DNA from: an uncultured Acidobacteriota bacterium
Lineage (GTDB): Bacteria; Acidobacteriota; JAQAZP01
Direction: 5' to 3'
Assembly (NCBI GenBank): GCA_963836075.1
Contig: CAWIIB010000009.1
Coordinates: 1,792,001 to 1,856,000 of the forward strand
Length of the DNA stretch: 64,000 bases
Both the position numbers and the translations under genes were made by a program. Below, one piece after another: positions 7,580-63,777 of the stretch (positions within the stretch are counted from its first letter, which is position 1; each line of letters starts with the position of its first letter). The notes beneath the pieces are model-generated. The model ran no database searches. It was not told the DNA's origin and saw only the letters and a list, made by a program, of their open reading frames with translations.

Positions 7580-7605
7580 TGTGAAGCACCACAGGTGCCG
7601 GGACG

Positions 7606-7642
7606 AAAATGGGGACTGGCAGCTTTTTGCCTGTCCCCGATT
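7606..7642. repeat. REP-like palindrome AAAATGGGGACTGGC...GCCTGTCCCCGATT, copy 1
   Basis: Imperfect inverted repeat between convergent genes; same arms at 44679, 45534 and 48614. Confidence 0.75.
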
Positions 7643-7656
7643 ATTTCCCGGGCAGA

Positions 7657-13584: not shown

Positions 13585-13598
13585 GGGAGAAGCGAACC

Positions 13599-19088: not shown

Positions 19089-19467
19089 CCAACTTGGTCT
19101 CACCGGCCTGACCCTGGAAGCAAGGCCGTTTCACTCCCTTAGAGTAGCGTTGATACTGGCCGGACTGATGATCCATACTGGCTGAAGTGTCCTTCGCAGG
19201 TCTCAGTGCTGACAACCCGGTTTTCCGCCCGGTGCCCAGCAGACTGCCGACTGCACCCTCTGATCTCCGGCCCCGATCGCGCTCTTCCTGGTCCGCATGG
19301 ACCAGGCCGCGACGAGCATTTACCGGCCCCGGCGGCCGGAGCGGACCGACCGGCACCTCGAGCTGTCCCAGCCGGGGTTCCGCGCCATGGTCACGGTGCC
19401 GGGGCACGAGGCCGAAGATGTTATAGTCAGACAGGAGACCTTACAGAACGAAACAGAGAGGGAGAAA

Positions 19468-21969
19468 ATGGAATCCGAAACAGGTGTCTGGTCCGGCTGG
19501 CAGGAAACACCCATATCCCAGGGCGAGATCGATATCAGTCTCGTCGAGGACCGGCTGGCGGAATTTCTGGGTCGCTACGGCGAGAAGAGCGTCGTCGGGC
19601 CGCGGCTGGCCGAGGTGCTGGGCCCGGGCGACGGCGAGGAGCGCCTGGCGCGGCTGATCGCGGCCTGCGGGTTCGAGGACCGGTCCGAGGCCTTTATCCG
19701 CACGGTTCTCGACCAGTTGAGCCGGACGTCGCCCCAATCCGTGGCGGACATCCGCCTGGGGGCCATCGTCCTGCCGCAGGAGATCCTGCTGCTCTTCCTC
19801 GAGGAGCTGCTGCCGGGCTCAGGTTTCGTCAACGTCCGCGAACTGGAGCACTATGAGGCTCTCTGCAACATCACGGTCCCCGATGAAGAGCGCGACCGCA
19901 TCCGCCGGGTGCTCCGCGAATACCCGGTGCGGCTGTCCCACCACACGCTGCGCCAGGTCCGGCTGTCCGAGGGAATCGGCTACCAGTACCTTCCCTTTGC
20001 CGACGAACTCTCGGAGGAGGGGCAGGTCCACACCTGGATTGGCCAGTTCCACCAGGGCGTGGTCGAGCAGATGTACGACAACCGGGTCATCATGGTGCTC
20101 CACATGAGCTGTCCGGTCTACTGCCGCTTCTGCTTCCGCAAGCACAAGGAGACTCGGGAACAGCTGCCGCCCACCATGGAGGACATCGACGCGGCGCTGG
20201 GCTACATCGCGGGCAACGACCACATCAGAGAGGTCGTGCTCACCGGCGGCGAGCCGCTGATGAACCGCAAGACGGTGGAGCAGTCGATCTACGGGCTGGC
20301 GCGCATCCCCCACATCGAGACCGTGCGCCTCGCCGCCCGCACCATCTCCTACCACCCCCAGATGCTGCGCCGCCGCAACGAGTTCTGGATGCGCTTTCTG
20401 ATCAAGGCGCGAGAGGACCTGGCGGTGGTCGGCAAGCACCTCGAGGTGGCCGGGCACTACATCCATCCGGACGAGGCGTCCATCGCCTCGCTCGAGGTCA
20501 TCGCCGAACTGGCACGAAACGGCATCCCGGTCTACGTCCAGACGCCCTTCCTCGCCGGCTGCAACGACGACGGCGAGGTCCTGGCCCGGCTCTATCACGA
20601 GCTGCGGCTGCGCGGGGCGGAGATGCACTACATCTTCTTCCCCTGCAGCGCGATCAAGGGGAACCGCCGCTACTGGAGCCCGATCGCGGCGGCGTTGCGC
20701 GCCGGCAACGAGTTGCGGGCCCTGCTCTCGGACCGGGCGATCCCTCACCTGACCACGGCGACCAGGATCGGCAAGATCGACTGGCTGACCAGCGGCTGGG
20801 CGGTGGAGCGCGACGAGGCGGACACCGCCTTCATCTGGATCCGGACACCCTACACCCGGCAGTACTTCTCCCAGTTCGTCGAGGCCGTGGAAGAGATCGA
20901 CGGTGTGCGCGAGAACGCGGACGGCATGCTCGAGGCGCGATTCATGGCCGATATCGGCGACGAGGCGCTCTTCGTCCGGCCCCGGGTCGAACTGCCGGAT
21001 GTCGACCAGGTGGACGACGAGGACCTGCCCTACGACGAGGAGCAGATCGCCGAGCTTTACGACTACCTGCCTGATATCGGACCCGATATCGTCTCCAGCG
21101 GCCTCGAGAAGCTCTGCCGCGTGCACCGCACCCGCGTCGAGCTGCGCGTGGATTGCGACGACGGGCAGCTCGGGCGGATCGTCGACTACGTGGCGGCCCA
21201 CCCGGCGATCACCGATGCCGTGCTGCGCACCGATACGCCCCTGCCGGACTCCCTGGACGAGATCGAACGCGCCGTCGCCGCCCTGCGAGCCGGCACCGAC
21301 GTGCGGTCGTTCCGGATGCGCAGCCGCATCTTTCACGAGGAGCCTTTGCTCTACGACGCCTCGGTGGTGGAGCGCTATGCGGCCCTGCAGAACCTCGACG
21401 TGGCCGACCCCGTGCGTTTCGAACTGGAGACGCTGGTGCTGAGCGCGGACCAGCTCGACGACAGCCACCGCCGGGTCGTGGAAAGCCTGCACCAGAACGG
21501 CGTGACCATCTATCTCAACAGCTGCCTGCTGCACAACGTCAACGACAGCGCCGCCGCGATGCGGGCGCTGTCGTCGAAGTGCCGCCGTTTCGGTTTCGAG
21601 TTCCACCACCTCTATGTCGCCGGCGCGCAGACCCAGCGTCGCTGGAACGCCGGACGGCCGGTGGACCTGGACACGATCATCGGCATCGCCACCGAGCTGC
21701 GCCGCACCGGCAGCGGCCGCGAACTCCCCCGCCTGATCGTCTCCACCGAACTGGGGGAGGTGGATTTCGGCCCGGGTTGCCACATCCGCCCCGGTCCCGC
21801 GCGCGGCACGGCGGAGATCACGCTGTGGCCCTACACCTTGGACTACTTCCGGGCCATGGACCCCGCCTTCGAGTGGCCGGAAGGGGTCCGCGAGGACGGG
21901 GGGTACCCGGTGGTCACCACGCCCGGGCTGCGCTGCAGGCACAGCTGGGGACCGCCGCGGCGCCCGTAA
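19468..21969 (+). CDS. KamA-family (lysine 2,3-aminomutase-like) radical SAM protein with a degenerate second domain
   Basis: YPVRLS, CPVYCRFCFRK, EVVLTGGEPL and QTPFLAGCND; the C-terminal half repeats the pattern without the Cys motif. Confidence 0.8.
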   Translation: MESETGVWSGWQETPISQGEIDISLVEDRLAEFLGRYGEKSVVGPRLAEVLGPGDGEERLARLIAACGFEDRSEAFIRTVLDQLSRTSPQSVADIRLGAIVLPQEILLLFLEELLPGSGFVNVRELEHYEALCNITVPDEERDRIRRVLREYPVRLSHHTLRQVRLSEGIGYQYLPFADELSEEGQVHTWIGQFHQGVVEQMYDNRVIMVLHMSCPVYCRFCFRKHKETREQLPPTMEDIDAALGYIAGNDHIREVVLTGGEPLMNRKTVEQSIYGLARIPHIETVRLAARTISYHPQMLRRRNEFWMRFLIKAREDLAVVGKHLEVAGHYIHPDEASIASLEVIAELARNGIPVYVQTPFLAGCNDDGEVLARLYHELRLRGAEMHYIFFPCSAIKGNRRYWSPIAAALRAGNELRALLSDRAIPHLTTATRIGKIDWLTSGWAVERDEADTAFIWIRTPYTRQYFSQFVEAVEEIDGVRENADGMLEARFMADIGDEALFVRPRVELPDVDQVDDEDLPYDEEQIAELYDYLPDIGPDIVSSGLEKLCRVHRTRVELRVDCDDGQLGRIVDYVAAHPAITDAVLRTDTPLPDSLDEIERAVAALRAGTDVRSFRMRSRIFHEEPLLYDASVVERYAALQNLDVADPVRFELETLVLSADQLDDSHRRVVESLHQNGVTIYLNSCLLHNVNDSAAAMRALSSKCRRFGFEFHHLYVAGAQTQRRWNAGRPVDLDTIIGIATELRRTGSGRELPRLIVSTELGEVDFGPGCHIRPGPARGTAEITLWPYTLDYFRAMDPAFEWPEGVREDGGYPVVTTPGLRCRHSWGPPRRP

Positions 21970-35776: not shown

Positions 35777-36551
35777 ATGGGAAACGGAGTGGGAGCATCG
35801 ATCGGCAAGCCTGGCGTGAAACCGGGTGCGAAGCCGGGCAGGAAGCCGGATTCAGGGCCTGGCGTGAAACCGGGCGTCGAATCGGGGGAAAAGCCGGGCA
35901 CGGGTTCCGGGAAAAAACCGGGCGGAAGCGCTGCTGGCGGCAGTGCCGGCCGGCGGGCGCGCACGGCCCGCTACGATGAGAAACTGAACGCCGTGCTTTC
36001 CGCCTCATCCGCACTCTTTGCCAGCAAGGGCTACGAGCGGGCATCGATCCGGGATGTTTCCAAGGCCACGGGGATGAGTCTGGCCGGTCTCTACTACTAC
36101 TTCAGCAGCAAGGAAGAACTGCTCTTCCTGATCCAGTTCCGGGCATTCGAGTCGATCATGCGAAAAGCTGAGAGAGATCATCAAGAGCGAGACCGATCCG
36201 CAAACCTGTCTGCACCGCATGATCAAGATGCACTTCGAATACTTCATCCGCCACATGAACGATCTGAAAATCTGCTCCCGGGAGATCGACTCGCTGGAAG
36301 GGGAGTTCTACCAGGAGGTCGCGGAGAAGCGGAAAGAGTATTTCGACCTGACCCAGTCGATTTTCGAGCGGATGAACGACCTGTCCGGCGGTTCGTCGGC
36401 GGACAGCAGGCTTGCCGCGCTCTACCTCTTCGGCACCCTGAACTGGATCTACCAGTGGTACAGACCGGGGCGCTACCCGGATGCCGGGGAGATGGCCAGC
36501 CAGCTGTCGGGCATCTATCTGCAGGGTTTCCCGCGGATGGCATCGATGTAG
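35777..36551 (+). CDS. TetR-family regulator with KPG-repeat N-terminal extension; +1 frameshift near 36165
   Basis: LFASKGYERASIRDVSKATGMSLAGLYYYFSSKEELL helix-turn-helix; C-terminal FGTLNWIYQWYRP (KstR2/PaaR-like) in the next frame. Confidence 0.9.
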
Positions 36552-36552
36552 G

Positions 36553-37701
36553 ATGATGAGAAGAGAGACACCGCGAGTCAAGCAGCTGCGACGGATGTAT
36601 TCCATCGAGGACGGAAGACTGCGGGGGGATGCCGGCTGGGAGAAACTCGCGTTCTTCTGGTTCCACCTCTTCCTGTCCTACCAGTGCACCAGAAGGTGCG
36701 ACTACTGCTATTCCTTCAACCAGGTGGGCAGCGACAACAAAACCGAAATGGACGAGAACACATTTTCCAGACTGCTGGACTGGATACCGGAAGTCTGGGA
36801 AGCCAACAACGTCAAGGTCAACGCCATCGGCTTCCTCGGCGGCGAGCCGCTTCTGCGCACCGACCGGATCAAGCGCGTGATGGATGCGGTCTACGAGAAC
36901 ACCGACGGCATGCAGGGCTTTGTCTATACCAACGGCGACACCATCGACGACGTGAACTGGGATGATCTGGAGGACATCCAGTGGATATCCACGAACATCA
37001 CCGACATCAGTTTTGATGAGCTGGCCAGAAGAATGAAGGTCGTCAGTGACCGCTCGAACGTCATCGGCCAGACCGTGGTGGCCACCCTGGATGATGAAAA
37101 CCTCGAGCGGGCCCTCGAGATCACCAGGTTCGGCGTCGACCATGGCTACCGGCTGAGGTTTTACCGCAATCTGTACCGCGGGCTGGATGCGGAGTACCGG
37201 GTCAGGTTGCTCAAGACCTATCACGACATCTGTGATCTGCTGGAACACGCGGTAGCCAGGGGATACGACGTTCACACCACCTTCATGATCGATACGCTGA
37301 TCCCCCTCTGGGGCCATGAGACGTCGCCGTACCAGTGCGGGCAGCGGGTGGCCACCGTATTCCCGGACGGGTCGATCGGGCCGTGCATCAGGAACCACTC
37401 CTTGAAGACCGGGACGATCTTCGACGCGGACCCGATGAGCAAACTGCAGTGCGGTTCCTATCACTACGGGTTCAACGAGACGGGCACTCCCGATGAGTGC
37501 CTGGCCTGCGAATCGAAAACCTCCTGCCAGGGGGGGTGCCCGAACGACAAACTGGTCCTCACCGGCTGCGAATCCGGCACGTCGGTGATGTGCGAGATCC
37601 ACCGGGAGATCATTCCGAGGTTGAGACATCTGGAAGAACTGAAAAGGGAACACCGGGACAGGGAAAGCAAGAGTAACCTGGAAGTAGGTTCATTGCGTTA
37701 G
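36553..37701 (+). CDS. Radical SAM protein with SPASM-like domain
   Basis: CTRRCDYC, FLGGEPLL and C...PDGSIGPC...CLACESKTSCQGGC...C. Confidence 0.9.
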   Translation: MMRRETPRVKQLRRMYSIEDGRLRGDAGWEKLAFFWFHLFLSYQCTRRCDYCYSFNQVGSDNKTEMDENTFSRLLDWIPEVWEANNVKVNAIGFLGGEPLLRTDRIKRVMDAVYENTDGMQGFVYTNGDTIDDVNWDDLEDIQWISTNITDISFDELARRMKVVSDRSNVIGQTVVATLDDENLERALEITRFGVDHGYRLRFYRNLYRGLDAEYRVRLLKTYHDICDLLEHAVARGYDVHTTFMIDTLIPLWGHETSPYQCGQRVATVFPDGSIGPCIRNHSLKTGTIFDADPMSKLQCGSYHYGFNETGTPDECLACESKTSCQGGCPNDKLVLTGCESGTSVMCEIHREIIPRLRHLEELKREHRDRESKSNLEVGSLR

Positions 37702-41598: not shown

Positions 41599-44500
41599 AT
41601 GAACCCGGAAGGACGAAGGCAAGTGGAAAAAATCTCAGTTGACAGGAATCTCGGAGATGTCCTGGTGGTGGGCGGCGGGATCAGCGGCATTCAGGCCGCC
41701 CTGGACATGGCCGCCGCCGGCTTCAAGGTCTACCTGGTGGAGAAGGGGCCGAGCATCGGCGGTCACATGGCCCAGCTGGACAAGACCTTTCCCACCAATG
41801 ACTGCTCCACGTGAATACTCGCACCTAAAATGGTCGAGTTCGGCCGTCATCAAAATATCGAAGCCCTGACCTACGCTGAAGTTGACAACGTGGAAGGTGA
41901 GGTCGGTGACTTCACGGTCACCGTGACCCGCAAGCCCCGCTACATCGACGAGGACATCTGCACCGGCTGCGGCATCTGTATGAAATACTGCCCGGTGGAT
42001 ATTCCCGATCCCTACAACCAGGGGCTGTCCAGCAACAAAGCGATCCATATCTACTTTTCCCAGGCCATTCCCCTGGTCACCTACATCGATCAGAGCTGCC
42101 TCAAGCTCAAGGAGGGCAAGTGCGACATCTGTACCGGTGTCTGCCAGCCCAGGGCCATCGACTTCAGGCAAACCGCCGAGAAGATCGAACTGAACGTGGG
42201 GACCATCATCCTGTCCGCCGGCATCGCGCCGTTCGATCCCGCCGTGGTGGATGAGTACGGCTACAAGAAATATCAGAACGTGGTCACCAGCATGGACTAC
42301 GAGCGGCTGCTCTCCGCCACCGGCCCGTACCAGGGCGAGATCCTGCGCGCCACCGACCGCAAACATCCCAAAAAGGTGGCCTGGCTGCAGTGCGTCGGCT
42401 CGCGCAAGGTCACCCCGGGGGAGAACAGCTACTGCTCCGGAGTCTGCTGCACCTATACCCAGAAGCAGGTGATCCTGACCAAGGACCACGAGGCCGAGGC
42501 GGAGTGCACGGTATTCCACAACGACATCCGCGCCATCGGCAAGGATTTCGAGCGCTACTACCAGAGAGCCGAAGACCTGCCCGGGGTGCGCTTCATCAGA
42601 AGCTACACCTCGGTGGTGCGGGAAATTCCGGAGAGCGGGAACGTGGTGGTGCGCTACTCCACCCCCGATGAAGGCGTGAAAGAGGAAGAATTCGAGATGG
42701 TGGTGCTGTCGGTGGGATTGAATCCGCCCGCCGACCACCAGGAGCTCTCCCATACCTTCGGCATCGGCCTCAATCCGCACGGGTTTCCCGAAACACCGCT
42801 GGAGAATCCCATGGCCACCACCCGGCCCGGGGTCTTTGTCAGCGGCGCCATGCAGGGGCCCATCGACATTCCGGAGTCGGTGTTCAGCGCCAGCGGCGCC
42901 GGCGCCCAGTGCGGTGAAGCGCTGCACTACCGCCGGGGCAAGTTGACCGAGGAGAAGACCTATCCGCCGGAGCGGGACACGGCCCGGGAGGAGCCGAGAA
43001 TCGGCGTCTTCGTCTGCCACTGCGGGGCGAACATCGGCAGCGTGGTGAACGTGCCTTCCGCCGTGGAATATGCCTGGACACTGCCCAACGTGGTTCACGC
43101 CCAGGAACAGCTCTTCTCCTGCGCCACCAATGCCGTCAGGGAGATCACCGATCTGGCGGAACAGAAAGGGCTCAACCGGGTGGTGATTGCCGCCTGCTCT
43201 CCCAGGACCCTGGAGGAACTGTTCCGCGACACCCTGCGTGAAGCGGGGCTCAACCAGTATTACCTGGAGATGGCCAACATCCGGGAGCAGTGCTCCTGGG
43301 TCCACTCGAAGGAAAAGGAAGCCGCCACCAGGAAATCGAAGGACATCATCAGGATGTCGGTGGCCCGGGCCGCCCACCTGGAGCCGCTGCAGGAGTTCGA
43401 CCTGCCGGTGAACAAGACCACCCTGGTGATCGGCGGCGGGATCGCCGGAATGACCTGTGCGCTGTCCATCGCCAACCAGGGCTACATGGTACACCTGGTG
43501 GAGAAGGACAAGCGTCTGGGCGGGATGGCGCGACGGATCCACAGCACCCTGGAGGGGATGGATGTCCAGGCCTATCTGGACGAGATGATCCAGTCGATCT
43601 ACCGCAACCCGATGATCCATGTATCGCAGGAAGCCAGCATCAGGGACGTTTCCGGATACGTGGGGAACTTCACCACCATCGTCGAATCCCAGGGCCGGGT
43701 GAAGAAGATCGATCACGGCGCCGCGGTCATCGCCATCGGGGCTGACGTCTACCAGCCGGCCGAATACCTCTACGGCGAGGACGACCGGGTGCTGACCCAC
43801 CTCGAACTGGGCGAGAAAATCGCCGGGAAGGACGAGGCGGTGGCCAACGCCCAGAGCCTGGTGATGATCCAGTGCGTGGGGTGCCGGAACGAGGACCGCA
43901 ACTACTGCAGCCGGGTCTGCTGCAGCCACGCTATCAAGAACGCCCTGAAGCTGAAAGAGATCAACCCCGGGATGGCGATCTACATCCTCTTCCGGGACAT
44001 GCGGACTTACGGCTTCAAGGAAGACTACTACCGGGAAGCGGCGGACAAGGGTGTGAACTTCATCCAGTACTCGCCGGAGAACGGGCCCGAAGTGGAAGCG
44101 GGCAAGAACGAGGCGGGCCAGCCCTGCCTCAAGGTCAGCGTGCCGGACCTCATTCTGGGCAACCGTCTGGAGCTGGACGCCGACATCCTGTCCCTGGCCG
44201 CTGCCGTGGTCCCCTCACCGGCGACCAGGGAGGTTGCCGGCCTGTTCAGGGTCACCCTGAATCCGGACCAGTTCTTCAAGGAGGCCCACGTCAAGCTGCG
44301 GCCAGTGGAGTTTGCCGCCGACGGCGTCTATCCTCTGCGGCATGGCGCACTACCCGAAGCACATCGAGGAGACGGTCAACCAGGCGTATGGCGCCGCCGG
44401 CCGGGTGCTGACCATGATGTCCCACGACACCGTGGTGGCTTCGGGTTCCGTGGCCGAGGTGGAAGAGTACGATTGCGTGTCCTGCGGGGCCTGCATCACC

Positions 44501-44701
44501 GCCTGCACCTATGAGGCCATCGAGTTCTGCGACACGCCAAAGGGCAGGAAAGCCCGGGTGAACCCGATCCTCTGCAAGGGGGATGGCCTCTGTGTGGCCA
44601 AGTGTCCCACCAGCGCCATCGCGCTGAAGCACTTCACCGACGAGGCGCTGCTGAGCCAGATCGATGCGGCGGAGGAAGTAAAAATGGGGGCTGGCTCCTG
44701 A
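41599..44701 (+). CDS. bamE: Class II BCR HdrA-like flavoprotein; selenoprotein (UGA 41812-41814); +1 frameshift near 44330
   Basis: GGGISG...[23 protein letters not shown], with UGA at the conserved Cys of HdrA CxxC; GVFVCHCG, second GGGIAG and C-terminal ferredoxin motifs. Confidence 0.88.
41830..41847 (+). promoter_or_regulatory. Putative bacterial SECIS hairpin ATGGTCG-AGTT-CGGCCGT
   Basis: Stem-loop with G in the apical loop about 23 nt downstream of the UGA. Confidence 0.55.
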
Positions 44702-54961: not shown

Positions 54962-56419
54962 ATGATCTCCGATCTTCAAGCGTTCGCCTCCAGCGGCATT
55001 CTGCTGCTGTTCATTCTGTTCCTCAGCCTCCTCGGCCGCCGCAACCCGATCATCGGCAAGCGGATAAGCATCCTCCTCCTCGCCCTGCTGATCCAGCTGG
55101 TGAGCGACACGGTGACCTACTTTCACCTGCCGCTGCCCGAGTTCGTCAGCCAGGGGCTGATCGCCCTGCTGCTGATGCTGCTGGCCATCTTCCTGGTCAG
55201 TGTGCTCAAGGCGTTTTCGCTCACCTGGCTCTCTGACAAGGGGGTCAAGGTCTCCAAGCTGATCACCGATGTCTCGGTGGGCCTGATCTACGCCATCCTG
55301 GCCCTCGTCCTGCTCAAGGAGCTGTTCGGGATAAACGTCACCCCGCTGCTGGCCACCTCGGCGGTGCTGACCATGGTTCTCGGCCTGGCCCTGCAGGACA
55401 CCCTGGCCAACCTCATCGCCGGGACGGTTTTTCACTTCGAGAACTCGATCCGCATCGGCGACTGGCTGGAGTTTGACGGGGTGACCGGTGAGGTGCGTGA
55501 GCTCTCCTGGAGGGCAGTGCGGTTGGTCACCACCCGCAAGGACGACATCCTGATCCCCAACACCATCCTGACCAAGCAGAAGTTCAGCAACCTGACCAAG
55601 TTGGGCCGGGCCCGGGAGAAGGATATCGGCACCAGCTACCGCGACGACCCGGACCTGGTGCTGCGGGTGCTGCGCAAGGCGGTGCTCTCCACCCCGGGGG
55701 TGCGCTGGGAGCCGGAGCCGCAGATCTGGATCACCGGTTTCGACGACTTCTCGATCAACTACCGCGTCCGCTTCTACATCAAGCAATACCGCGGATACCA
55801 GAAACTGGAAGGCGCAGTGATGCGCAACATCTGGTACCTGTTCAAGGCCCACGGCATCACCATTCCCTTCCCCATCCGCACCCTGCAGATCGAGCGCCGC
55901 CGCACGCCGGTCCCGGCCGCCCATGGCCCGGAGGAAATCCGCCAGGCGTTGCGCGGTGTCGATATTTTTACGACCTTCAGCGAGAGCGAAATTGCCGAAA
56001 TCGCGGAGTACAGCGAACTGCTGGACTATCCGCGGGGAACGGTGCTCACCGAGGAGGGCGAGTCGGGGGAGAGCATGTTCGCCTTACTCGCCGGGCGGGT
56101 GGAGGTGCTCAAGACCGGCAAACGGATCACCACCCTGGCTGCGGGGGACATCTTCGGCGAGATCTCGCTCTTCTCCGGCGGCGAGCGGACCGCTTCGGTG
56201 CGGGCGCTCACCGGCCTGGAAGTGCTGGTGATCCCCAAGGACGGTTTCGAGACGATCCTGAAAAAGAACAAGGAGTTCATCTCCAAGATAGAATCCATCG
56301 TCGAGGAGCGGCTGGAGACCTATCCCGAATTCTCCGACCTGGAGAAGACCGCCAAGCCGAAGGTCAGCCTGATCAAACAGATTCGAAGTTATCTACTGGG
56401 CGGCGGACAGAAGTCCTGA
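54962..56419 (+). CDS. MscS-family mechanosensitive channel with C-terminal cNMP-binding domain
   Basis: GLALQDTLANLIAG, IRIGDW and IPFP; then FGEISLFSGGERTASV. Confidence 0.92.
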   Translation: MISDLQAFASSGILLLFILFLSLLGRRNPIIGKRISILLLALLIQLVSDTVTYFHLPLPEFVSQGLIALLLMLLAIFLVSVLKAFSLTWLSDKGVKVSKLITDVSVGLIYAILALVLLKELFGINVTPLLATSAVLTMVLGLALQDTLANLIAGTVFHFENSIRIGDWLEFDGVTGEVRELSWRAVRLVTTRKDDILIPNTILTKQKFSNLTKLGRAREKDIGTSYRDDPDLVLRVLRKAVLSTPGVRWEPEPQIWITGFDDFSINYRVRFYIKQYRGYQKLEGAVMRNIWYLFKAHGITIPFPIRTLQIERRRTPVPAAHGPEEIRQALRGVDIFTTFSESEIAEIAEYSELLDYPRGTVLTEEGESGESMFALLAGRVEVLKTGKRITTLAAGDIFGEISLFSGGERTASVRALTGLEVLVIPKDGFETILKKNKEFISKIESIVEERLETYPEFSDLEKTAKPKVSLIKQIRSYLLGGGQKS

Positions 56420-56465
56420 GCCTGTTTGCACAATTCATGGACAATGACATCCCGGCGGAGGCCGC

Positions 56466-56732
56466 ATGAAACAACAGTACGCAGCACCACGGATCCGCAG
56501 CGAGAAATGCTTTGAAACCAGTGCTCTCGGTTGTGCCAAGCAGTCCAGTATGAACCCCGGGTCGTGGCATTTCGCCAACCCGTACGACACCTTCACCGGC
56601 CACCTTGGTTCGGGGCTCGGCGCCAGCGAATCGGTCACCGGGTCGGCGGGGGTGGGGTTCGGACCTGGCGGCACGTCGGCTTCCTATAACTATCCCGGTT
56701 TATGTGAGAACTGGGTCACCATGGTTTCCTGA
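56466..56732 (+). CDS. RiPP-precursor-like peptide, copy 1 (88 aa)
   Basis: Intact ORF with GGAGG RBS: MKQQYAAPRIRSEKCFETSALGCAK...GSWHFANPYDTFTGH...GPGGT...LCENWVTMVS. Confidence 0.75.
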   Translation: MKQQYAAPRIRSEKCFETSALGCAKQSSMNPGSWHFANPYDTFTGHLGSGLGASESVTGSAGVGFGPGGTSASYNYPGLCENWVTMVS

Positions 56733-56786
56733 GGACGGTGGACAATGACGGCTGCCTGGCAAGGCCGGCATCATGAAAGGTTGGCC

Positions 56787-57054
56787 ATGAAAAAAGAGTA
56801 CAGGCTCGCCACGGATCTGCAGTGAAAAGAGTTTCGAAACCAGCGCTCTGTCCTGCGCGAAAACGAACGACCCGCCCATGGGGTCATGGCACTTCGGCAG
56901 TGCGTACGACACCTTTACCGGTCACCTCTCATGGGGGTTTGGCGGCAGTGAGTCGGTTTCCGGGCCCATCGGGGTGGGATACGGCCCTGGCGGTACCACC
57001 GCGTCCTACGGTTACAGCGGGCTGTGCAGCAACTGGGTCACCTTTCACTCCTGA
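56787..57054 (+). CDS. RiPP-precursor-like peptide, copy 2 (88 aa after removing one base at 56802)
   Basis: Corrected: MKKEYGSPRICSEKSFETSALSCAKTNDPPMGSWHFGSAYDTFTGHLSWGFGGSESVSGPIGVGYGPGGTTASYGYSGLCSNWVTFHS. Confidence 0.72.
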
Positions 57055-57108
57055 GGACGGTGGACAACGCCGGCCGCCTGGGTCGGTCGGCATACTGAAA
57101 GGCCGGCC

Positions 57109-57385
57109 ATGAAAAAAGAGTACGGCTCACCACGAATCTGCAGCGAGAAGAGTTTCGAGACTAGCGCGCTGTACCTGCGCCAAGACTCCCGGTGACCCGC
57201 CACCGGGGGCCTGGCATTTCAGCAGCGCTTATGACACCTTCACCGGCCACTTCGGGCCCTCCATGGGCCCTCGAGAATCGGAAACCGGGGCCACCGGTAT
57301 CGGATGGGGTCCGGGGGGCACGACCATGTCCGGTTCTTACGCGGCGTACTTACAATGTACGCACTGGGTTACATATTCCTCCTGA
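57109..57385 (+). CDS. RiPP-precursor-like peptide, copy 3 (91 aa after removing one base at 57172/57173)
   Basis: Corrected: MKKEYGSPRICSEKSFETSAL(S/T)CAKTPGDPPPGAWHFSSAYDTFTGHFGPSMGPRESETGATGIGWGPGGTTMSGSYAAYLQCTHWVTYSS. Confidence 0.72.
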
Positions 57386-57419
57386 TGCCGCGAACTGATC
57401 CTGCAAAACCCCGCCGCAC

Positions 57420-57455
57420 AAAAAACGGGGCCGGACGTTTTCACGCCCGGCCCCG
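57420..57455 (-). terminator. Rho-independent terminator downstream of the S8 peptidase gene
   Basis: CGGGGCCGG...CCGGCCCCG stem followed by a T run on the minus strand, between convergent genes. Confidence 0.75.
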
Positions 57456-57486
57456 CGGTTAGTTCCTCCTTCTATCCCCCAGCAGG

Positions 57487-60400
57487 TCAGTTGACCGTCA
57501 CCGACGTCTGGAAGACCACGTATCCCACCTGCTCGGTGGTGTGCCTCCGCTCATTGTCGTTCACCTGGTCCTCGTCGACCCAGAGGTCCATGCCCGAGGC
57601 GCTGACGCCGCCGACGGTGTTGGCCCAGCCGCCGTTTCCGCCGTCCATGGCCGCCATGGTGATCACGGCCACCGCCGGCACGCCGCCGAAGGCGGTGTCG
57701 AAGGTGTAGGCGTAGGGCCCGCCGTTGTCCGGGCCGCGCACGGAGTCCGCACCAACCTTGGCCTCGAAAGCCGAACCGCCGATGGTGCCGTGACCGGCCT
57801 CGAAGACGATGAAGCCCACCGTCTCGTTGGCCCGGGTGGTGTCCGGGTCTTCAGCGACCTCCTTGCCGGTAATCAGGGCGGTGGCTGTGGGGATGTTGGA
57901 GCGGGCGCTGCCGGCGCACCAGAAGGCTGACCAGTCGGGGTCGTTCTCGGTCATCACCTGACCGAGGACCACCGGGTTGGTGTAGCTCTGGCCGTAGGTC
58001 TGGCTCTCGCCGTTCCAGCTGTTGTTCTCGTCGGTCACCGTGGAGAGGTAGGTCTGGGCCTCGCAGTTGACGCCGTCGATGGTCCAGGTGCCCTCCTCCA
58101 TCACGATGTAGCTCACCGTTTCGGCGGCCACCCCGCTGTCCGAGGGGTTCTGCAGCCGCACGTCGAAGCTGTTGGCCGTGACGTTGCTCACCCGGGTGAC
58201 GATGGGAATGCTGTTGTTGTTGTAGTCGGCGGAGCAGACGACAACCGCACTGGTGTAGGTGTTGTTGAGGTTCACCGTGACGGGGGTTCCGCCCACGGTC
58301 ACCGTGCCGGTTTCCATCCGTGCCTGCGGGCCGGTCTCGCACTCGTCGGGGATGCCGTTGAGGTCGGTGTCCTCGCTGGTGCCGTCGGCGATGTCGCAGG
58401 AATCGGGGGTGCCGTTGCTGTTGCAGTCCGGTTCACCGGCGCAGGCATCACCGATGCCGTCGTTGTCGCAGTCCTCCTGTCCTGGGTTGTAGGTTGCGGG
58501 ACAGTTGTCCACACAGTCGGCCCAGCCGTCGCCGTCACCGTCCGTGTCGGGCACTCCGCAGCCGCAGATGCCGGGGTCAAACTTGTTGGGATCGCTGGGG
58601 CAGCCGTCGATGCAGTCGGCCACGCCGTCACCGTCACTGTCGGTATCCGGGGTGCCGCAGCCGCAGTCGCCGGGAGCGATCTTGTTGGGATCGCTGGGGC
58701 AGCCGTCCATGCAGTCGGCCGTTCCGTCACCGTCACTATCGGTATCCGGGGTGCCGCAGCCGCAGTCGCCGGGGGCCAGTTTGTCGGGATCGGCCGGGCA
58801 GCCGTCGCAGGGGTCGATCACCCCGTCACCGTCGCTGTCGGCCTGGCACTCGTCGGGCACGCCGTTGCCGTCGCAGTCCTGGCTGGTGCCGCCGGAGATA
58901 TCCTCGCTGTCGGGGACGCCGTTGTTGTTGCAGTCGATCATGCCGGCGGGGTAGACCATCGCCGTCTCGAACACCGCGTAGGCCACCTGTTCGGTGATGT
59001 GCCCGCGTTCGGTGTCCATGATCTGGTCTTCGTCGATGGAGAGGTAGAGGTTGGTGGCCGACGCCGGCGTGCCGTGGGTCTGGGCCCAGCCGCCGTTGCT
59101 GCCGTCCATGCCGGCCTGGGTGACCACGTTGACCGCCGGGGCGGAGGCGAAGGCAGTGTTGAAGGTGTAGGTGTAGGGCGGACTGTTGGTCACACCCTCG
59201 ATCAGATCGGAGCCCATCACCGCTTCGAAGTCCACGCCGCCGATGGTGCCGTGGCCGGCCTCGAAGACGATGAAGCCGATGGTTTCGTCGGCGCGGGTGA
59301 TGTCGGTGTCCTCGCAGACGGTCTTGCCGGTTTTGAGGACCGAGGCGCTCGGCGCGCTGGAACGGCTGGAACCGTAGCTCCAGAAGACCGACCAGTCAGA
59401 ATCGTTCTCGCTCATCACCTGGCCCAGCACCACCGGGGTGGTGTAGCCCTGGCCGTAGGCCTGGGTCTCGCCGACCCAACTGCCGTTTTCATCGGTCACC
59501 GTGGAGAGGTAGGTCTGGGCTTCGCAGTTGACGCCGTCGATGGTCCAGACGCCTTCCTCCATCACCAGGTAGCTCACCTCTTCGGCCGACACGGCGCTGC
59601 CCGAGGGGTTCTGCAGCCGGACGTCGAAGCTGTTGGTGGTGACGTTACTCACCCGGGCCACCACCGGGATGGCGTTGGCGCTGTAGTTCACCGCACAGAC
59701 CACCACCGGGCTGACGTAGGTGTTGACCAGGGCCACCGAAGTGGCACTGCCGCCGGCGGTCACCGTGCCGGACTCCATTTTCGCTTCAGGCCCGACCTCG
59801 CACTCGTCGGGGATGCCGTTACTGTTGGTGTCCTGGCTGGTGCCGTCCGTGATGTCGCAGGAATCGGGGATACCGTTCAGGTTGCAGTCCGGTTCGCCGG
59901 CGCAGGCATCGCCAATGCCGTCGTTGTCACAGTCCTCCTGGCCGGGGTTGTAGGTGCCGGGGCAGTTGTCATCGCAGTCGATCCAGCCGTCACCGTCACT
60001 GTCGCCATCGGGCACACCGCAGCCGCAGATGCCGGGGTCGGTCTTGTTGGGATCGTCGGGGCAGCCGTCGTTGCAGTCCAGGGTGCCGTCACCGTCACTG
60101 TCCACGTCGGGCACTCCGCAGCCGCATTCGCCGGGAGCGATCTTGTTCGGGTCACTGGGGCAGCCGTCGATGCAGTCGGCCACGCCGTCACCGTCACTGT
60201 CCACGTCCAGCACTCCGCAGCCGCAGTCGCCGGGAGCGATCTTGTTCGGGTCGTTGGGGCAGCCATCGGCGCAGTCGGCCACGCCGTCGCCGTCGCTGTC
60301 CACGTCGGGCACGCCGCAGCCGCAGTCGCCGGGCGCGATCTTGTTCGGATCGTTGGGGCAGCCGTCGTTGCAGTCGGGCACGCCGTCACCGTCGCTGTCG

Positions 60401-63400
60401 GTGTCCGGAGTGCCGCAGCCGCAGTTGCCGGGGACGGTCTTGTCCGGGTCGGCCGGGCAGCCGTCACAGGGATCGATCAGGCCGTCGCCGTCCGAGTCGG
60501 TCTGGCACTCGTCAGGCACGCCGTTGCCGTCACAGTCCTGGGATGTCCCTTCAGAGATATCCTGTGCATCGGGCACGCCGTTGTTGTTGCAGTCCACCGA
60601 TTCGCACTCGTCGGGGATGCCGTTGCCGTTGCCGTCCAGGCTGGTGCCGTCGGCGATGTCACACTCGTCGGGCACGCCGTTGGAGTTGCAGTCCTCGCTG
60701 GTGCCGTCGGTGATGTCGCACTCGTCGGGCACGCCGTTGTCGTTGCAGTCGCCCGGGCCGCCGCCTGCGGAGGTCCCGGTGACCTCCACGTCGTCGATGT
60801 TCCAGCCGCAATACTGCCAGGAGCTGTCAGTGGTGCCCTGGGTCCAGCGGATGTAGACCGTTCCCTCATAGTCGGCCACCGCCGAGATGTCGTAACTCTG
60901 CAGGGTCCAGGAAGCGTCCTCGGTGGCCGAGTCGGGGTTCTGCCAGATGGTGGTCCAGCTCGATCCGTCGTTGCTCACCCGGATGTAGGCGTGGTCGTAG
61001 GTGCTGCGCTCCACTCCCAGCCAGCGGCGGAAGGAGAGGGAGACATCGTAGATGTTGGAGCAGTCGATGGCCGTGGTGGTCAGGTGCCTCTCGGGCAGGC
61101 TGTTCTCGTAGTCGCCGGAGAGGTTGTAGCCGTAGACATTGCTGCCGGTGTAGGCCGAGGAGGGGTCGGGGCCGCCGTACTGGCCGCCGCCGCCCGTCGG
61201 GGTGCCGAAGCCCCAGAGCCCTTCGATACTCCAGCCGGGGTTGGTGTCGAGCGTGAAGCTGATCGTTGACGCACCCGAGCCGACCTCGCAGTCGTCGGGG
61301 ATGCCGTTGGCGTTGCAGTCTTCACTGGTGCCCAGGGCGATGTCACAGAGGTCGGACTGGCCGTTGTTGTTGCAGTCGTCGCCGCCGCCGGGCTCGCAGT
61401 CGTCGGGGATGCCGTTGCTGTTGCAGTCGGTGCTGGTGCCGTAGCTGATGTCGCACTCGTCGGGCACGCCGTTGCCGTTGCAGTCGAGGCTGGTGCCGCC
61501 GGAGATGTCCTGGTCATCGGGCACACCGTTGTTGTTGCAGTCGGCCGGGCCGGCCACGCCCAGGGTGGGTGAACCGCAGATGGAGAAGGATTGCGGGCCG
61601 TCGGGCACGCTGTAGCCCTGCACGGTCACGGTCCAGGTGCCGGCTTCGGGATTGTCCACCAGCACCTGCTCGATGTTGTTGGTGTGGTCCGCCTGGTTGC
61701 GCACCGCCGAGCTGGAGGGGCTGGTGGGGTTCAGCGTCCAGGGGTAGGCCCGCACGCTGGAGGGGCTCATCACCACCAGGTCGAGATCGTTGACCAGATT
61801 GGGGTTGACGTTGGGCGTTCCGGCCACATCGTCCCAGGCCATGGTGATCTTCAGTTCCGAGGTGCCGCCGGGGACCACCACCTGGTAGGTCACCGTGCCG
61901 CCCTGGCTCACCGAGTTCTCCTCGAACTCGCCGCCGCGCATGAAGTCGATGGTGTCGACAATGCGGATCGAGCCGAAGCCGTACTGGTAGTCCGGGCCGG
62001 TATTGCCCAGGTCAACCGCGTTGTGGGCCAGCAGGATCTTCAGTGTCGAGTTGCGCGGGTCGTTCTGGGCCGGATACTGGGCCCGGAAGTCTTCCAGCAG
62101 CAGGGCCAGGCAGCCGGTGACCGTGGGCGAGGCCATGGAGGTGCCGCACATGGTGGTGTAACCGCCGCTGGAGGAGCAGGAGGTGACGCCGCCGTCGCCG
62201 CCGCTCTGACAGCCCGGGCCGGAGATGTCCGGCTTCATCCGGCCGTCATCGGTGGGGCCCCAGCTGCTGAAATAGGTCATGGAGTCGTTGTCGGAGTTCA
62301 GCGCGCCAACGGCGATCTGGTTTTTCGCTCCGGCCGGGGGCGGGACGCTGTAGTAGTCGCCGTAGCCCTCCACGTCGCAGCGGCTGCCGCCGCGCTCGTT
62401 GCCGTTGGCCCAGACGATGCGGAACGGCGCACCGAGGCTGCCGCCCACGATCTCGTCGATCAGCGCCGCGGTGGCGCCGTAGTCGCCCTGGTAGGCGCAG
62501 TTGAAGCCGTTGGACTCGATGTTCGAGCCGATGGAGTTGTTGGAGATGTCGACGCCGTAGGTGTTGATCGCCTGGTTGTAGTCCGATTCCAGGTCGCCGG
62601 GGTTGGTGTAGAGGAAGGTCCCCGAGCCGTCATACTGGAAGCCGTAGGACTGGATGGTCACCCCCGGCGCCATCCCTTCATAATTGCTGTTGCCCGAACC
62701 GTCGCCGCCAATGGTGCCGGAGACGTGAGTGGCGTGGTCGCCCAGACCCGAGCTGTCGCGCACGGTGAGACGTCCGCTGAAATCGCTGTGGGATGCCAGG
62801 GCATACGCGGCATCGTACACCAGCACGTTTATGCCGCTGCCGTCCAGGTTGTAGGGCGCGGTCTGGGCCGAATCGGCCTGGGTGACCACGCTGTTGCTGT
62901 CATTGGTCTCGGTCATGAAGGGCAGCGGCGGTTCGACCCACATCACCGCGTCTTCGGCGGCCAGGTCGAGCAGTGCCTTGAGCGGCATCTCCACCACCAG
63001 CATGTTGATCGAGACGATCTCGGAAACCACCGTGGCCTTGTGCGCCCGGGCCAGGGCCCAGCCCTTGTCCAGGGGGATGTCCCGGTGGAACATCACATAG
63101 GCCGCCACCAGCGCTTCCTTGGTGTCCGCGTCCACGGCGATGGCATAGTCAGGATACTCGTTGGCCAGGATTGAGGGGGCGAGCTTCCACTCCAGCTCGA
63201 TGGGCATGGCGGATATGAGGGTGGGCGCCGCCCGCAGGTCGGTGGTCTCCAGACCGCCGGTCTTCAGCGTGGCAAAGAAGGCGTTGCTGCCCAGGTAGCT
63301 GTGCAGGCCCACGCCAAGGGTTTCCAGCGCGGCCTTTTCCTCGAGGGTCACCGGCTTGCTGAACTGCACCACGATGTGTTGCCCGGAGCCTGACTTTGAC

Positions 63401-63585
63401 AGCTCGCTGAGCGCCACGAAGGCGGCATCGCCGGTTGGCCGGTCGCCCATTTCAACCCCGCTTCTCCAGCTGATCTCAGCCTGTGCCGTCCAGGCCGGGC
63501 CGAACAGCAGCAGGGCCGTGGTGATGATGGCAGTGATCACCAGGGCTGGGTGGAATCCTCTTCTGTACACAGAACTACCTGACAT
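57487..63585 (-). CDS. Large secreted S8 (subtilisin-like) serine peptidase with Cys/Asp-rich calcium-binding-type repeats and two C-terminal beta-rich domains
   Basis: Signal peptide; triad VLVYD / DHATHVSG / GTSMASP; DCNxNGxPDxC and DGCPxDPNKxxPGxCGCG repeats; duplicated ~280-aa module; ATG at 63585 with AAGGGGGAG RBS. Confidence 0.9.
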   Translation of the reverse strand: MSGSSVYRRGFHPALVITAIITTALLLFGPAWTAQAEISWRSGVEMGDRPTGDAAFVALSELSKSGSGQHIVVQFSKPVTLEEKAALETLGVGLHSYLGSNAFFATLKTGGLETTDLRAAPTLISAMPIELEWKLAPSILANEYPDYAIAVDADTKEALVAAYVMFHRDIPLDKGWALARAHKATVVSEIVSINMLVVEMPLKALLDLAAEDAVMWVEPPLPFMTETNDSNSVVTQADSAQTAPYNLDGSGINVLVYDAAYALASHSDFSGRLTVRDSSGLGDHATHVSGTIGGDGSGNSNYEGMAPGVTIQSYGFQYDGSGTFLYTNPGDLESDYNQAINTYGVDISNNSIGSNIESNGFNCAYQGDYGATAALIDEIVGGSLGAPFRIVWANGNERGGSRCDVEGYGDYYSVPPPAGAKNQIAVGALNSDNDSMTYFSSWGPTDDGRMKPDISGPGCQSGGDGGVTSCSSSGGYTTMCGTSMASPTVTGCLALLLEDFRAQYPAQNDPRNSTLKILLAHNAVDLGNTGPDYQYGFGSIRIVDTIDFMRGGEFEENSVSQGGTVTYQVVVPGGTSELKITMAWDDVAGTPNVNPNLVNDLDLVVMSPSSVRAYPWTLNPTSPSSSAVRNQADHTNNIEQVLVDNPEAGTWTVTVQGYSVPDGPQSFSICGSPTLGVAGPADCNNNGVPDDQDISGGTSLDCNGNGVPDECDISYGTSTDCNSNGIPDDCEPGGGDDCNNNGQSDLCDIALGTSEDCNANGIPDDCEVGSGASTISFTLDTNPGWSIEGLWGFGTPTGGGGQYGGPDPSSAYTGSNVYGYNLSGDYENSLPERHLTTTAIDCSNIYDVSLSFRRWLGVERSTYDHAYIRVSNDGSSWTTIWQNPDSATEDASWTLQSYDISAVADYEGTVYIRWTQGTTDSSWQYCGWNIDDVEVTGTSAGGGPGDCNDNGVPDECDITDGTSEDCNSNGVPDECDIADGTSLDGNGNGIPDECESVDCNNNGVPDAQDISEGTSQDCDGNGVPDECQTDSDGDGLIDPCDGCPADPDKTVPGNCGCGTPDTDSDGDGVPDCNDGCPNDPNKIAPGDCGCGVPDVDSDGDGVADCADGCPNDPNKIAPGDCGCGVLDVDSDGDGVADCIDGCPSDPNKIAPGECGCGVPDVDSDGDGTLDCNDGCPDDPNKTDPGICGCGVPDGDSDGDGWIDCDDNCPGTYNPGQEDCDNDGIGDACAGEPDCNLNGIPDSCDITDGTSQDTNSNGIPDECEVGPEAKMESGTVTAGGSATSVALVNTYVSPVVVCAVNYSANAIPVVARVSNVTTNSFDVRLQNPSGSAVSAEEVSYLVMEEGVWTIDGVNCEAQTYLSTVTDENGSWVGETQAYGQGYTTPVVLGQVMSENDSDWSVFWSYGSSRSSAPSASVLKTGKTVCEDTDITRADETIGFIVFEAGHGTIGGVDFEAVMGSDLIEGVTNSPPYTYTFNTAFASAPAVNVVTQAGMDGSNGGWAQTHGTPASATNLYLSIDEDQIMDTERGHITEQVAYAVFETAMVYPAGMIDCNNNGVPDSEDISGGTSQDCDGNGVPDECQADSDGDGVIDPCDGCPADPDKLAPGDCGCGTPDTDSDGDGTADCMDGCPSDPNKIAPGDCGCGTPDTDSDGDGVADCIDGCPSDPNKFDPGICGCGVPDTDGDGDGWADCVDNCPATYNPGQEDCDNDGIGDACAGEPDCNSNGTPDSCDIADGTSEDTDLNGIPDECETGPQARMETGTVTVGGTPVTVNLNNTYTSAVVVCSADYNNNSIPIVTRVSNVTANSFDVRLQNPSDSGVAAETVSYIVMEEGTWTIDGVNCEAQTYLSTVTDENNSWNGESQTYGQSYTNPVVLGQVMTENDPDWSAFWCAGSARSNIPTATALITGKEVAEDPDTTRANETVGFIVFEAGHGTIGGSAFEAKVGADSVRGPDNGGPYAYTFDTAFGGVPAVAVITMAAMDGGNGGWANTVGGVSASGMDLWVDEDQVNDNERRHTTEQVGYVVFQTSVTVN

Positions 63586-63777
63586 TGGAAACTCCCCCTT
63601 CTTTTGGTTGTAGGTCATACGATCGCTTTGGCAATGACGACAGTTATTTGAGGAGGCAAAACCACTTGGCCGGCAGTTGCTGTGCTGACCGGCCACGACA
63701 CTATTGTCCTTAATATATGGCAAGGAAGGGGGAAATTCAATATTTTGGAGGAGAAAATTGACTTAGAAACAGACATA

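Follow-up and report, generated by a model that had tools for sequence, protein, structure and literature searches.

Three short genes that lie head to tail in a 64,000-nucleotide stretch of DNA from an uncultured Acidobacteriota bacterium (GCA_963836075.1, contig CAWIIB010000009.1, positions 1,792,001 to 1,856,000; the whole stretch is called the window here) are probably precursors of an uncatalogued family of peptides made by the ribosome and modified after translation (RiPPs), whose maturation would depend on a RiPP recognition element (RRE) and a radical S-adenosylmethionine (rSAM) enzyme with a SPASM domain, provided in trans. A preliminary description of the window, made from its letters alone, had proposed RiPP precursors with a conserved leader and a varying core. 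The first part of this proposal is supported by an N-terminal module common to many relatives, by the linkage of such relatives to maturation enzymes and by the lack of a predicted fold. The varying core is not borne out, since the 88-residue peptide is 55–94% identical over its whole length among the homologues listed (120 of 166), so that the core is conserved and not hypervariable.

Three tandem genes and their leader module

The head-to-tail arrangement of three units was confirmed, with ATG codons at 56466, 56787 and 57109 and thus spacings of 321 and 322 bp. Copy 1 is the sole intact open reading frame (ORF), and alignment shows one extra base in each of the other two copies (Table 1). 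The consensus given earlier, with its WHF, YDTFTGH and WVT motifs, is found in all three copies, and the two invariant cysteines, C23 and C80, stand 57 residues apart (60 in copy 3). The units are real coding sequences, far beyond chance, because of the E-values obtained with the family hidden Markov model (HMM; Table 1) and because the proportion of synonymous differences between the window copies (pS 0.64–0.70) greatly exceeds that of non-synonymous ones (pN 0.23–0.33), which agrees with the earlier remark that many differences are synonymous. The ratio of non-synonymous to synonymous substitution rates (dN/dS) between the window copies is 0.14–0.30, the value of 0.14 belonging to copy 2 against copy 1; intact paralogue pairs at L001 and L003, two loci of one related metagenome-assembled genome (MAG), give 0.20–0.30 where dS is computable. 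Purifying selection has thus acted on the frames 3′ of both breaks for almost all their divergence.

The search with copy 1 found 166 proteins of 48–154 amino acids at E ≤ 0.01 and that with copy 2 found 143 proteins at E ≤ 1e-10; 'hypothetical protein' is the sole source name of the listed homologues, several relatives share one contig, and arrays or multiple copies are usual. The peptides match no known non-RiPP family: the three window peptides gave no Pfam or NCBIfam match at E ≤ 10, and 14 long, medium and short representatives gave no NCBIfam match and no meaningful Pfam match at E ≤ 1. All clusters matched in the ESM Atlas are named 'hypothetical protein' and have no Pfam family (best score 0.93), with Acidobacteriota as the commonest phylum. 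Literature searches, with subscription journals, preprint supplements and the TIGRFAMs source paper outside their coverage, yielded no description of the family, and a word search on the motifs met neither FETSAL nor YDTFTGH among the papers listed, the matches being unrelated words or names. Three MAGs among the species-representative genomes carry the full-length family, at 13 loci. The Acidobacteriota-labelled MAG_302_bin-08 holds 10 copies at six loci (L001–L003, L005, L006 and L009), with one maturase operon seen; the other carriers are a MAG labelled 'uncultured bacterium' (six loci) and one labelled 'PVC group' (one short contig).

The N-terminal part of about 25 residues, K-K-x-Y-x-x-P-x-I-x-x-E-x-x-F-E-T-x-A-L-x-C-[G/A]-K, is joined to many different C-terminal parts. 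Medium relatives of about 80–85 residues were found in Fermentibacteria and Eisenbacteria MAGs, and short relatives of about 40–60 residues in MAGs labelled Armatimonadota, Terriglobales, Rokubacteria, Methylomirabilia and Binataceae, as well as in Nevskia; both resemble the window peptides only in the N-terminal 25–28 residues. A profile of residues 1–34, built from 42 long, medium and short sequences, scores every one of its members at 59–78 bits, and against 1.84 billion representatives (clusters at 50% identity) it detected 667 proteins at E ≤ 1e-3. When the core is measured from the Cys after A-L-x, the typical length in the superfamily is 18 residues; among the best 150 of the 667, the core spans 10–19 residues in 116, 20–29 in 17 and 40–79 in 13. 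The same best 150 end in Ser in 141 cases, and exactly two core cysteines are present in 124 of 146. The YxxP motif stands in 148 of 151 long-family sequences and in 147 of the 150 best representatives, and at the junction F-E-T-x-A-L-[A/S/G/T]-C-[G/A]-K a small residue (A, S, G or T) occupies position –1 in 141 of 148 and 140 of 145, respectively. In the long family (n = 151) the terminal residues are 129 Ser, 17 Thr, 4 Cys and 1 Asn. Such a conserved N-terminal module on unrelated C-terminal parts corresponds to a leader-plus-core architecture. The peptides of the preliminary description therefore belong to a much larger leader superfamily, and both the C-terminal Ser and the linked kinase described below had gone unnoticed in it.

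Probable maturation enzymes beside the relatives

The neighbourhoods of 40 related loci were surveyed by a Pfam scan of 241 ORFs (125 + 116). An rSAM/SPASM gene of one subfamily lies within about 4 kb of the peptide at 15 of the 40 loci: 10 of 19 short ones, three of eight medium ones (L018–L020, where it is immediately upstream) and two of 13 full-length ones (L003 and L014); at the short locus L030 the rSAM gene is cut by the contig end. The 13 full-length rSAM enzymes compared are 35–45% identical across the three groups, and CNExCxHC is present in all. A PqqD-family gene was found at nine loci, namely L003, L014 and seven short ones; the PqqD of L003, found by reading the plus strand, is 94% identical to that of L014. 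At L003 and L014 the gene order is kinase-like protein, PqqD, rSAM/SPASM enzyme, S24-like peptidase and then full-length precursors, three in L003 and at least one before the contig end in L014. Homologues of the window peptides thus do co-occur with an RRE and modifying enzymes, and in two of the three genomes carrying the full-length family the operon stands directly 5′ of family members.

The kinase-like protein, of 270–415 residues and encoded just upstream of PqqD, has its best NCBIfam matches, all sub-threshold, in ScmC and in the HprK-related kinases A and B (E 1e-4 to 1e-7 for the HprK-related models, below their cut-offs) and carries the P-loop GxSGAGKTT. Its predicted structure (predicted local distance difference test, pLDDT, 90.9) has its best PDB fold matches in ATP-dependent phosphoenolpyruvate carboxykinase (PEPCK; E 3.9e-9, TMq 0.49); the PDB sequence-profile search was weak (P-loop and PEPCK proteins, E ≥ 0.0086), and a relaxed Pfam search gave weak PEPCK_ATP matches only, so that it took the fold comparison to place the protein. 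A protein of about 180 residues resembles S24 peptidases and signal peptidase I, above the Pfam cut-off in L027 and weakly in L003, L014 and L039. At six short loci PF14907 (NTP_transf_5, 'uncharacterised nucleotidyltransferase') is also present.

The structure models are in line with a precursor peptide. AlphaFold2, run on the peptide with a 37-sequence alignment, gave a mean pLDDT of 39, a predicted template modelling score (pTM) of 0.17 and values below 50 for all 88 residues; the preliminary description had left a stable globular fold open as a competing outcome, and the model shows none. Modelling of the PqqD of L003 together with residues 1–34 of window copy 1 gave a score of 0.68 (runs 0.68, 0.63 and 0.70) against 0.02 for the best control; 58 of 80 solved complexes attain the mark applied, as do two of 110 mismatched pairs. 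Agreement between the runs extends to at least 96% of contacts, with a partner pLDDT of at least 57, and leader residues 2–16 are placed against PqqD residues 31–40, 43 and 62–85. The model supports, in silico, the predicted binding of the leader by a PqqD-type RRE.

Several observations weigh against RiPP precursors matured in this way. A maturase is nearby at only two of the 13 full-length loci and is lacking at 25 of the 40 loci overall, and the Pfam scan of 43 window ORFs gave no PqqD and no SPASM-domain match. RRE–leader complexes have already been solved, so that the pass of the model may reflect likeness to them, and the PqqD used in it comes from another organism. Most multi-precursor RiPPs have hypervariable cores, unlike the 66-residue core here, which is conserved among the listed homologues. 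Of the three window copies, two are frame-broken, and the C-terminus of the long family is not Ser in 22 of 151 sequences. As to the tailoring enzymes, PF14907 was seen only beside short relatives and never beside the full-length family among the loci scanned, and the kinase call depends on sub-threshold NCBIfam matches and a PEPCK-like fold, with no HprK structure among the listed fold matches.

One may ask if the peptides are RiPP precursors at all. They could instead be small Gly-rich disordered proteins with another role, for instance substrates, inhibitors or partners of the neighbouring S8 peptidase or metal-binding peptides, which merely have the N-terminal motif in common with true precursors. 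The unusually long and conserved 66-residue C-terminal part would fit this, as would the 11 of 13 full-length loci without a maturase nearby and the S8 peptidase neighbour, kept in the window and in L001; the invariant His, Cys and Trp could bind metal. Nevertheless, such an explanation is improbable: full-length members directly follow the PqqD–rSAM/SPASM operon in L003 (three copies) and L014, the N-terminal module of long, medium and short forms scores 59–78 bits against one profile, all three forms also have the second Cys and the C-terminal Ser in common, and the predicted PqqD–leader complex passes its controls.

Other radical SAM genes adjoin family peptides at single loci. B12-binding ones do so at L004:781-3012 (–) and L036:3725-5326 (–), the former with 'RiPP maturation radical SAM C-methyltransferase' as its best match (133 bits; cut-off 282), and a HemN-like one does so at L007:594-2237 (–). 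In loci of Terriglobales and Binataceae the short precursors are directly preceded by genes for large proteins of 600–1000 residues, without Pfam match at E ≤ 1e-5 (Table 1). Three of them (both of L033 and one of L037) gave no NCBIfam match, and in L033 the pair of large protein and precursor is duplicated in tandem; kinship of the large proteins with the S8 peptidase of the window was considered and rejected, the two not being homologous. In L034 and L040 a sedolisin-like protein with a Pro-kumamolisin activation domain occupies the position of the large protein. In L015–L017 of Eisenbacteria and Fermentibacteria (about 7000–9900 in L015) the relatives of 80–85 residues are divergent to a conserved trio of extracytoplasmic function (ECF) sigma factor, zf-HC2 anti-sigma factor and trypsin-PDZ protease, and this link may be regulatory.

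The orphan array and its two extra bases

The window array is an orphan. As the preliminary description had stated, no maturase is adjacent to it, and the 43 window ORFs scanned include neither a PqqD nor a maturase of the linked subfamily. Two radical SAM genes of the window were considered as the missing maturase and rejected: the one at 19297-21969 is KamA-like, and that at 36481-37701 is unrelated to the L003 enzyme (22% identity over 64 residues). The latter gene (+) is flanked by a TetR regulator on one side and an aldehyde:ferredoxin oxidoreductase on the other, and several rSAM/SPASM peptide-maturase models match its product weakly and below threshold (PapB, 63 bits; cut-off 340).

The flanks are those named earlier, a channel of MscS type with a cyclic nucleotide monophosphate (cNMP)-binding domain and an S8 peptidase, both recognized by Pfam. 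At L001 the arrangement is the same, with MscS-cNMP channel, three intact copies and S8 peptidase; the channel is 86% identical to L001:7997-9505 over 485 residues and the peptidase 87% identical to L001:10726-15909 over 1242 residues. Since the flanks are 86–87% identical, whereas the best match between the peptides of the window and those of the L001 array (9581-10586) is only 65% (pN 0.24–0.35), the turnover of the peptide array is faster than that of its flanking genes. No clear one-to-one orthology is seen between the peptides of the two arrays. As this syntenic MAG possesses both an orphan array (L001) and a maturase-linked array (L003), modification in trans by a maturase operon located elsewhere in the window's own genome is plausible by analogy.

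Table 1. Coordinates of the array, its spacers and flanks in the window (numbered from its first letter), and of large proteins at related loci (numbered by locus)
Feature	Position	Strand	Basis
MscS-type channel with cNMP-binding domain, upstream	54962-56419	+	Pfam
Copy 1, intact precursor gene, 88 residues	56466-56732	+	ORF, translation; family HMM E=1e-47
Copy 1, proposed leader, residues 1–22	56466-56531	+	boundary inferred from junction statistics, F-E-T-x-A-L-[ASGT]/C-[GA]-K (slash marks the boundary)
Copy 1, proposed core, C23–S88	56532-56729	+	boundary inferred from the same F-E-T-x-A-L-x/C junction statistics
Spacer 1 (copies 1–2), weak AAAGG ribosome-binding stretch before ATG	56733-56786	+	alignment
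Copy 2, precursor gene with one extra base at about 56802	56787-57054	+	alignment; family HMM E=1e-41
Spacer 2 (copies 2–3)	57055-57108	+	alignment
Copy 3, precursor gene with one extra base at about 57173	57109-57385	+	alignment; family HMM E=3e-28
G+C-rich hairpin separating the ends of copy 3 and the convergent S8 peptidase gene	57425-57456	.	terminator scan
S8 subtilase, 2078 residues, repeat and lectin domains, downstream and convergent	57487-63723	–	Pfam, NCBIfam
Large proteins upstream of short precursors	L027:1-3018; L033:5448-7376, 7521-9950; L037:7297-9645; L038:3-1052; L039:4665-6530, 6551-8575		

In a DNA alignment with the three intact copies of L001, each extra base of the window is a single-column inserted A. 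Copy 2 reads MKKEY, after which a skip of one base is needed to enter the frame 56803-57054, open for 83 residues with its stop at 57052-57054. In copy 3 the skip follows 21–22 residues from 57109, and the frame 57176-57385 is open for 69 residues; the break falls inside the ALxC junction, the HMM matches are split over two frames (profile positions 1–22 and 21–88), and the read-through product would have about 91 residues. Copy 1 is 94% identical to the database protein P0005, which comes from a metagenomic contig of 1385 bp. The closest relative of copy 2 is P0125 (86% identity), encoded on a metagenomic contig of 966 bp; it is intact, reads MKKRYGSPRISSEK across the break site and has YGSP at the site itself. 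Those of copy 3, among intact relatives, are P0114 and P0052 (72–74%).

That the array is decaying, with copies 2 and 3 being true recent pseudogenes with real one-base insertions and copy 1 alone functional in a family that is still of RiPP type, is a serious possibility, although its chances seem slightly less than even. Both inserted bases are single A's outside homopolymer runs, and the density of breaks, two within some 0.8 kb of coding DNA, is far higher than in the rest of the contig, where two further breaks were found in the other 63 kb or so. Disrupted copies exist in other genomes too, amounting to three of the 18 copies in full-length loci: an in-frame stop where relatives have Gln (L008, 10175-10177), an in-frame stop where relatives have Tyr together with a truncated end (L012, 1426-1428) and a C-terminal fragment of 34 residues (L004, 394-495). 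On the other hand, all family-invariant residues are kept 3′ of the breaks and dN/dS is like that of the intact paralogue pairs, so that any inactivation would be very recent, and the intact state of P0125 also speaks against decay. Moreover, a thiolase gene and a xanthine-dehydrogenase-like gene of the same contig are frame-broken as well, which points to assembly indels or polishing errors across repeats. Because other conserved genes of the contig share this defect, both insertions in the array may have arisen in assembly.

The thiolase gene (13585-14791, +) is split near 14400–14450, with Thiolase_N at 13585-14460 (stop at 14458-14460) and Thiolase_C, complete over profile positions 2–123 of 123, at 14381-14791 in another frame; this break is either an assembly indel or a mark of a pseudogene. 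In the gene of the xanthine-dehydrogenase/CO-dehydrogenase-like large subunit (8409-12162, –) the frame switches near 10380, which separates the FAD, 2Fe-2S and hammerhead domains (10261-12162) from the molybdopterin-binding domains (8409-10358).

Programmed +1 ribosomal frameshifting, by which copies 2 and 3 would be read through, is scarcely credible as an explanation of the breaks. Both of them require the same one-base shift and both lie within the first 25 codons; however, no slippery or stall motif common to the two sites was seen by eye, the insertion falls at different codons in the two copies, and the listed homologues, nearly uniform at 84–118 residues, fit single-frame genes, with all 18 that were aligned or read being in one frame.

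The spacers had been described as related, and the alignment of spacer 1 with spacer 2 agrees. An extension of P0125, MTAAWHGRHHERLA, is spacer-derived and differs by eye from the translation of the window spacer in one of 14 residues. The hairpins of the spacers fold no better than shuffled sequences (z –1.12 for spacer 1 and –1.16 for spacer 2). The hairpin beyond copy 3 has 14 pairs, of which 11 are GC, a fold z of –2.64 and a T-run on the minus strand; it is likely a terminator. An Rfam E-value scan of 55500–58000 gave no match to a known RNA element, and no sigma-70-like promoter was found in 56300–57520. Elsewhere in the window, a heterodisulfide-reductase-A-like gene (41599-44514, +), with a FlpD/MvhD-like gene after it, contains an in-frame TGA at 41812-41814 that parts a 71-residue FAD-binding N-terminus from an ORF of 894 residues; this TGA is a possible selenocysteine codon.

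Likeness to known pathways and a proposed route

The nearest parallels are the sactipeptides and ranthipeptides with their StsB, AlbA, SkfB and PapB families of enzymes, where a Cys-bearing precursor with an N-terminal leader meets an rSAM/SPASM enzyme and a PqqD-like recognition element. In NCBIfam the linked enzyme resembles StsB (E about 1e-39), AlbA and PapB. However, its score against StsB is 135 bits, while the curated cut-off is 625. The named maturase models tested were StsB, AlbA, SkfB, PapB, MftC, PqqE, WgkB, ScmE/F and GeoRSP, and for the linked enzymes of L003, L014, L018, L020, L026 and L032 the best NCBIfam scores were 133–159 bits against cut-offs of 265–850, none of which was reached. 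The RRE is a separate protein here and a fused domain there, the window peptides have 66-residue cores with two cysteines, and the family clusters add the PEPCK/HprK-like kinase, the S24-like peptidase and sometimes PF14907. The kinase and PF14907 recall the lasso peptides paeninodin (PadeK) and pseudomycoidin (PsmK and PsmN), which have a conserved C-terminal Ser, a P-loop kinase of HprK/PEPCK type, a nucleotidyltransferase, a YxxP leader and a PqqD RRE; the likening of PsmN to PF14907 goes by the description 'uncharacterised nucleotidyltransferase' that both bear. The YxxP leader, the PqqD partner, the C-terminal Ser and the kinase and nucleotidyltransferase neighbours might thus suggest that the window peptides are lasso-peptide precursors themselves. 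This is highly improbable, since among the 241 neighbour ORFs Pfam found neither an Asn-synthetase-like lasso cyclase nor a transglutaminase-like B2 peptidase, the partner is instead a radical SAM/SPASM protein, and the lasso_PqqD models stay below their cut-offs. The likeness of the kinase to HprK is itself sub-threshold.

Three other systems share parts of the set. The SynChlorMet cassette, like HPr-rel-A known in silico from NCBIfam/TIGRFAMs, brings together a ScmC/HprK-related protein, a PqqD-family chaperone and an rSAM/SPASM enzyme, but its cut-offs are unmet (ScmC at most 46 bits against 125, ScmD at most 46 against 100, ScmE 114–121 against 400); HPr-rel-A pairs HprK-related kinase A with PqqD. 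A literature search for SynChlorMet found no paper in the collection covered. In the pathways of PQQ and mycofactocin a separate PqqD-family chaperone and a SPASM rSAM enzyme act on a small peptide (PqqE/PqqD and MftC/MftB), and MftC and PqqE are among the better NCBIfam matches of the linked enzyme (E 1e-30 to 1e-40; MftC 132–137 bits against a cut-off of 265). There, however, one short precursor becomes a cofactor, whereas here at least 10 paralogous precursors are present per genome, and the family peptides are not known to resemble PqqA or MftA. In prochlorosin systems a single maturase locus serves many scattered precursor genes, which have a conserved leader in common. The dispersed orphan precursors of MAG_302_bin-08 are similar to this; the enzyme class differs, and the long-branch cores are conserved here. 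Taken together, the sequence comparisons indicate that the system works like an RRE-dependent rSAM/SPASM RiPP pathway of sactipeptide or ranthipeptide type, its tailoring enzymes being reminiscent of phosphorylated lasso peptides and of SynChlorMet and HPr-rel-A, and that by the curated cut-offs it is a member of none of these.

A route for such precursors can be outlined. The PqqD protein would bind leader residues 2–16, including Y5 and P8, and present the core to the rSAM/SPASM enzyme, which would make at least one cross-link. Thioethers from C23 and C80 are most likely, because no core features but the two cysteines are common to the long, medium and short forms; as an alternative, the invariant W34, H35, Y40, T42, H46 or W83 may take part in other radical cross-links. 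The rule for cleavage sites of type I signal peptidases is Ala-x-small, and the S24/S26-like peptidase would cut the leader after A20-L21-x22, which follows this pattern, so that Cys23 would become the new N-terminus. The almost constant C-terminal Ser suggests, by analogy, phosphorylation: this residue would be O-phosphorylated by the linked kinase-like protein, and the phospho-Ser further decorated where the PF14907 nucleotidyltransferase is present. According to a review and a primary paper, the C-terminal Ser of lasso precursors is phosphorylated by HPr-kinase homologues, and PsmN, an 'uncharacterized nucleotidyltransferase', is required for the addition of hexose to that phosphate (PMC8498205; PMC6993621).

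It is tentatively proposed, with chances judged somewhat under even, that the peptides represent a new RiPP class, defined by the leader K-K-x-Y-x-x-P…F-E-T-x-A-L-x/C-G-K (the slash marks the cut), in which one operon of PqqD, rSAM/SPASM enzyme, PEPCK/HprK-like kinase and S24-like peptidase serves many dispersed precursors, cross-links their cores and caps the C-terminal Ser with phosphate, with or without a sugar. The branch found in the window would then consist of 66-residue, Gly- and aromatic-rich mini-proteins, structured only after modification and drawn from at least 10 paralogues per genome that turn over faster than the flanking genes. The array also carries a practical warning, as two of its three genes are invisible to ORF callers through single-base breaks. 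If the RiPP reading is right, the array would clearly exemplify orphan precursors matured in trans, a situation that adjacency-based genome mining misses, and the long-core branch would rank among the largest radical-SAM RiPP cores. Furthermore, a superfamily of 667 clusters without a Pfam or NCBIfam model, spanning Nevskia and MAGs that bear the labels Acidobacteriota (including Terriglobales), Armatimonadota, Rokubacteria, Methylomirabilia, Binataceae, Fermentibacteria and Eisenbacteria, would gain a testable biosynthetic logic: a stand-alone PqqD on a YxxP leader, radical cross-linking, a signal-peptidase-like cut and a C-terminal Ser tailoring so far known from lasso peptides.

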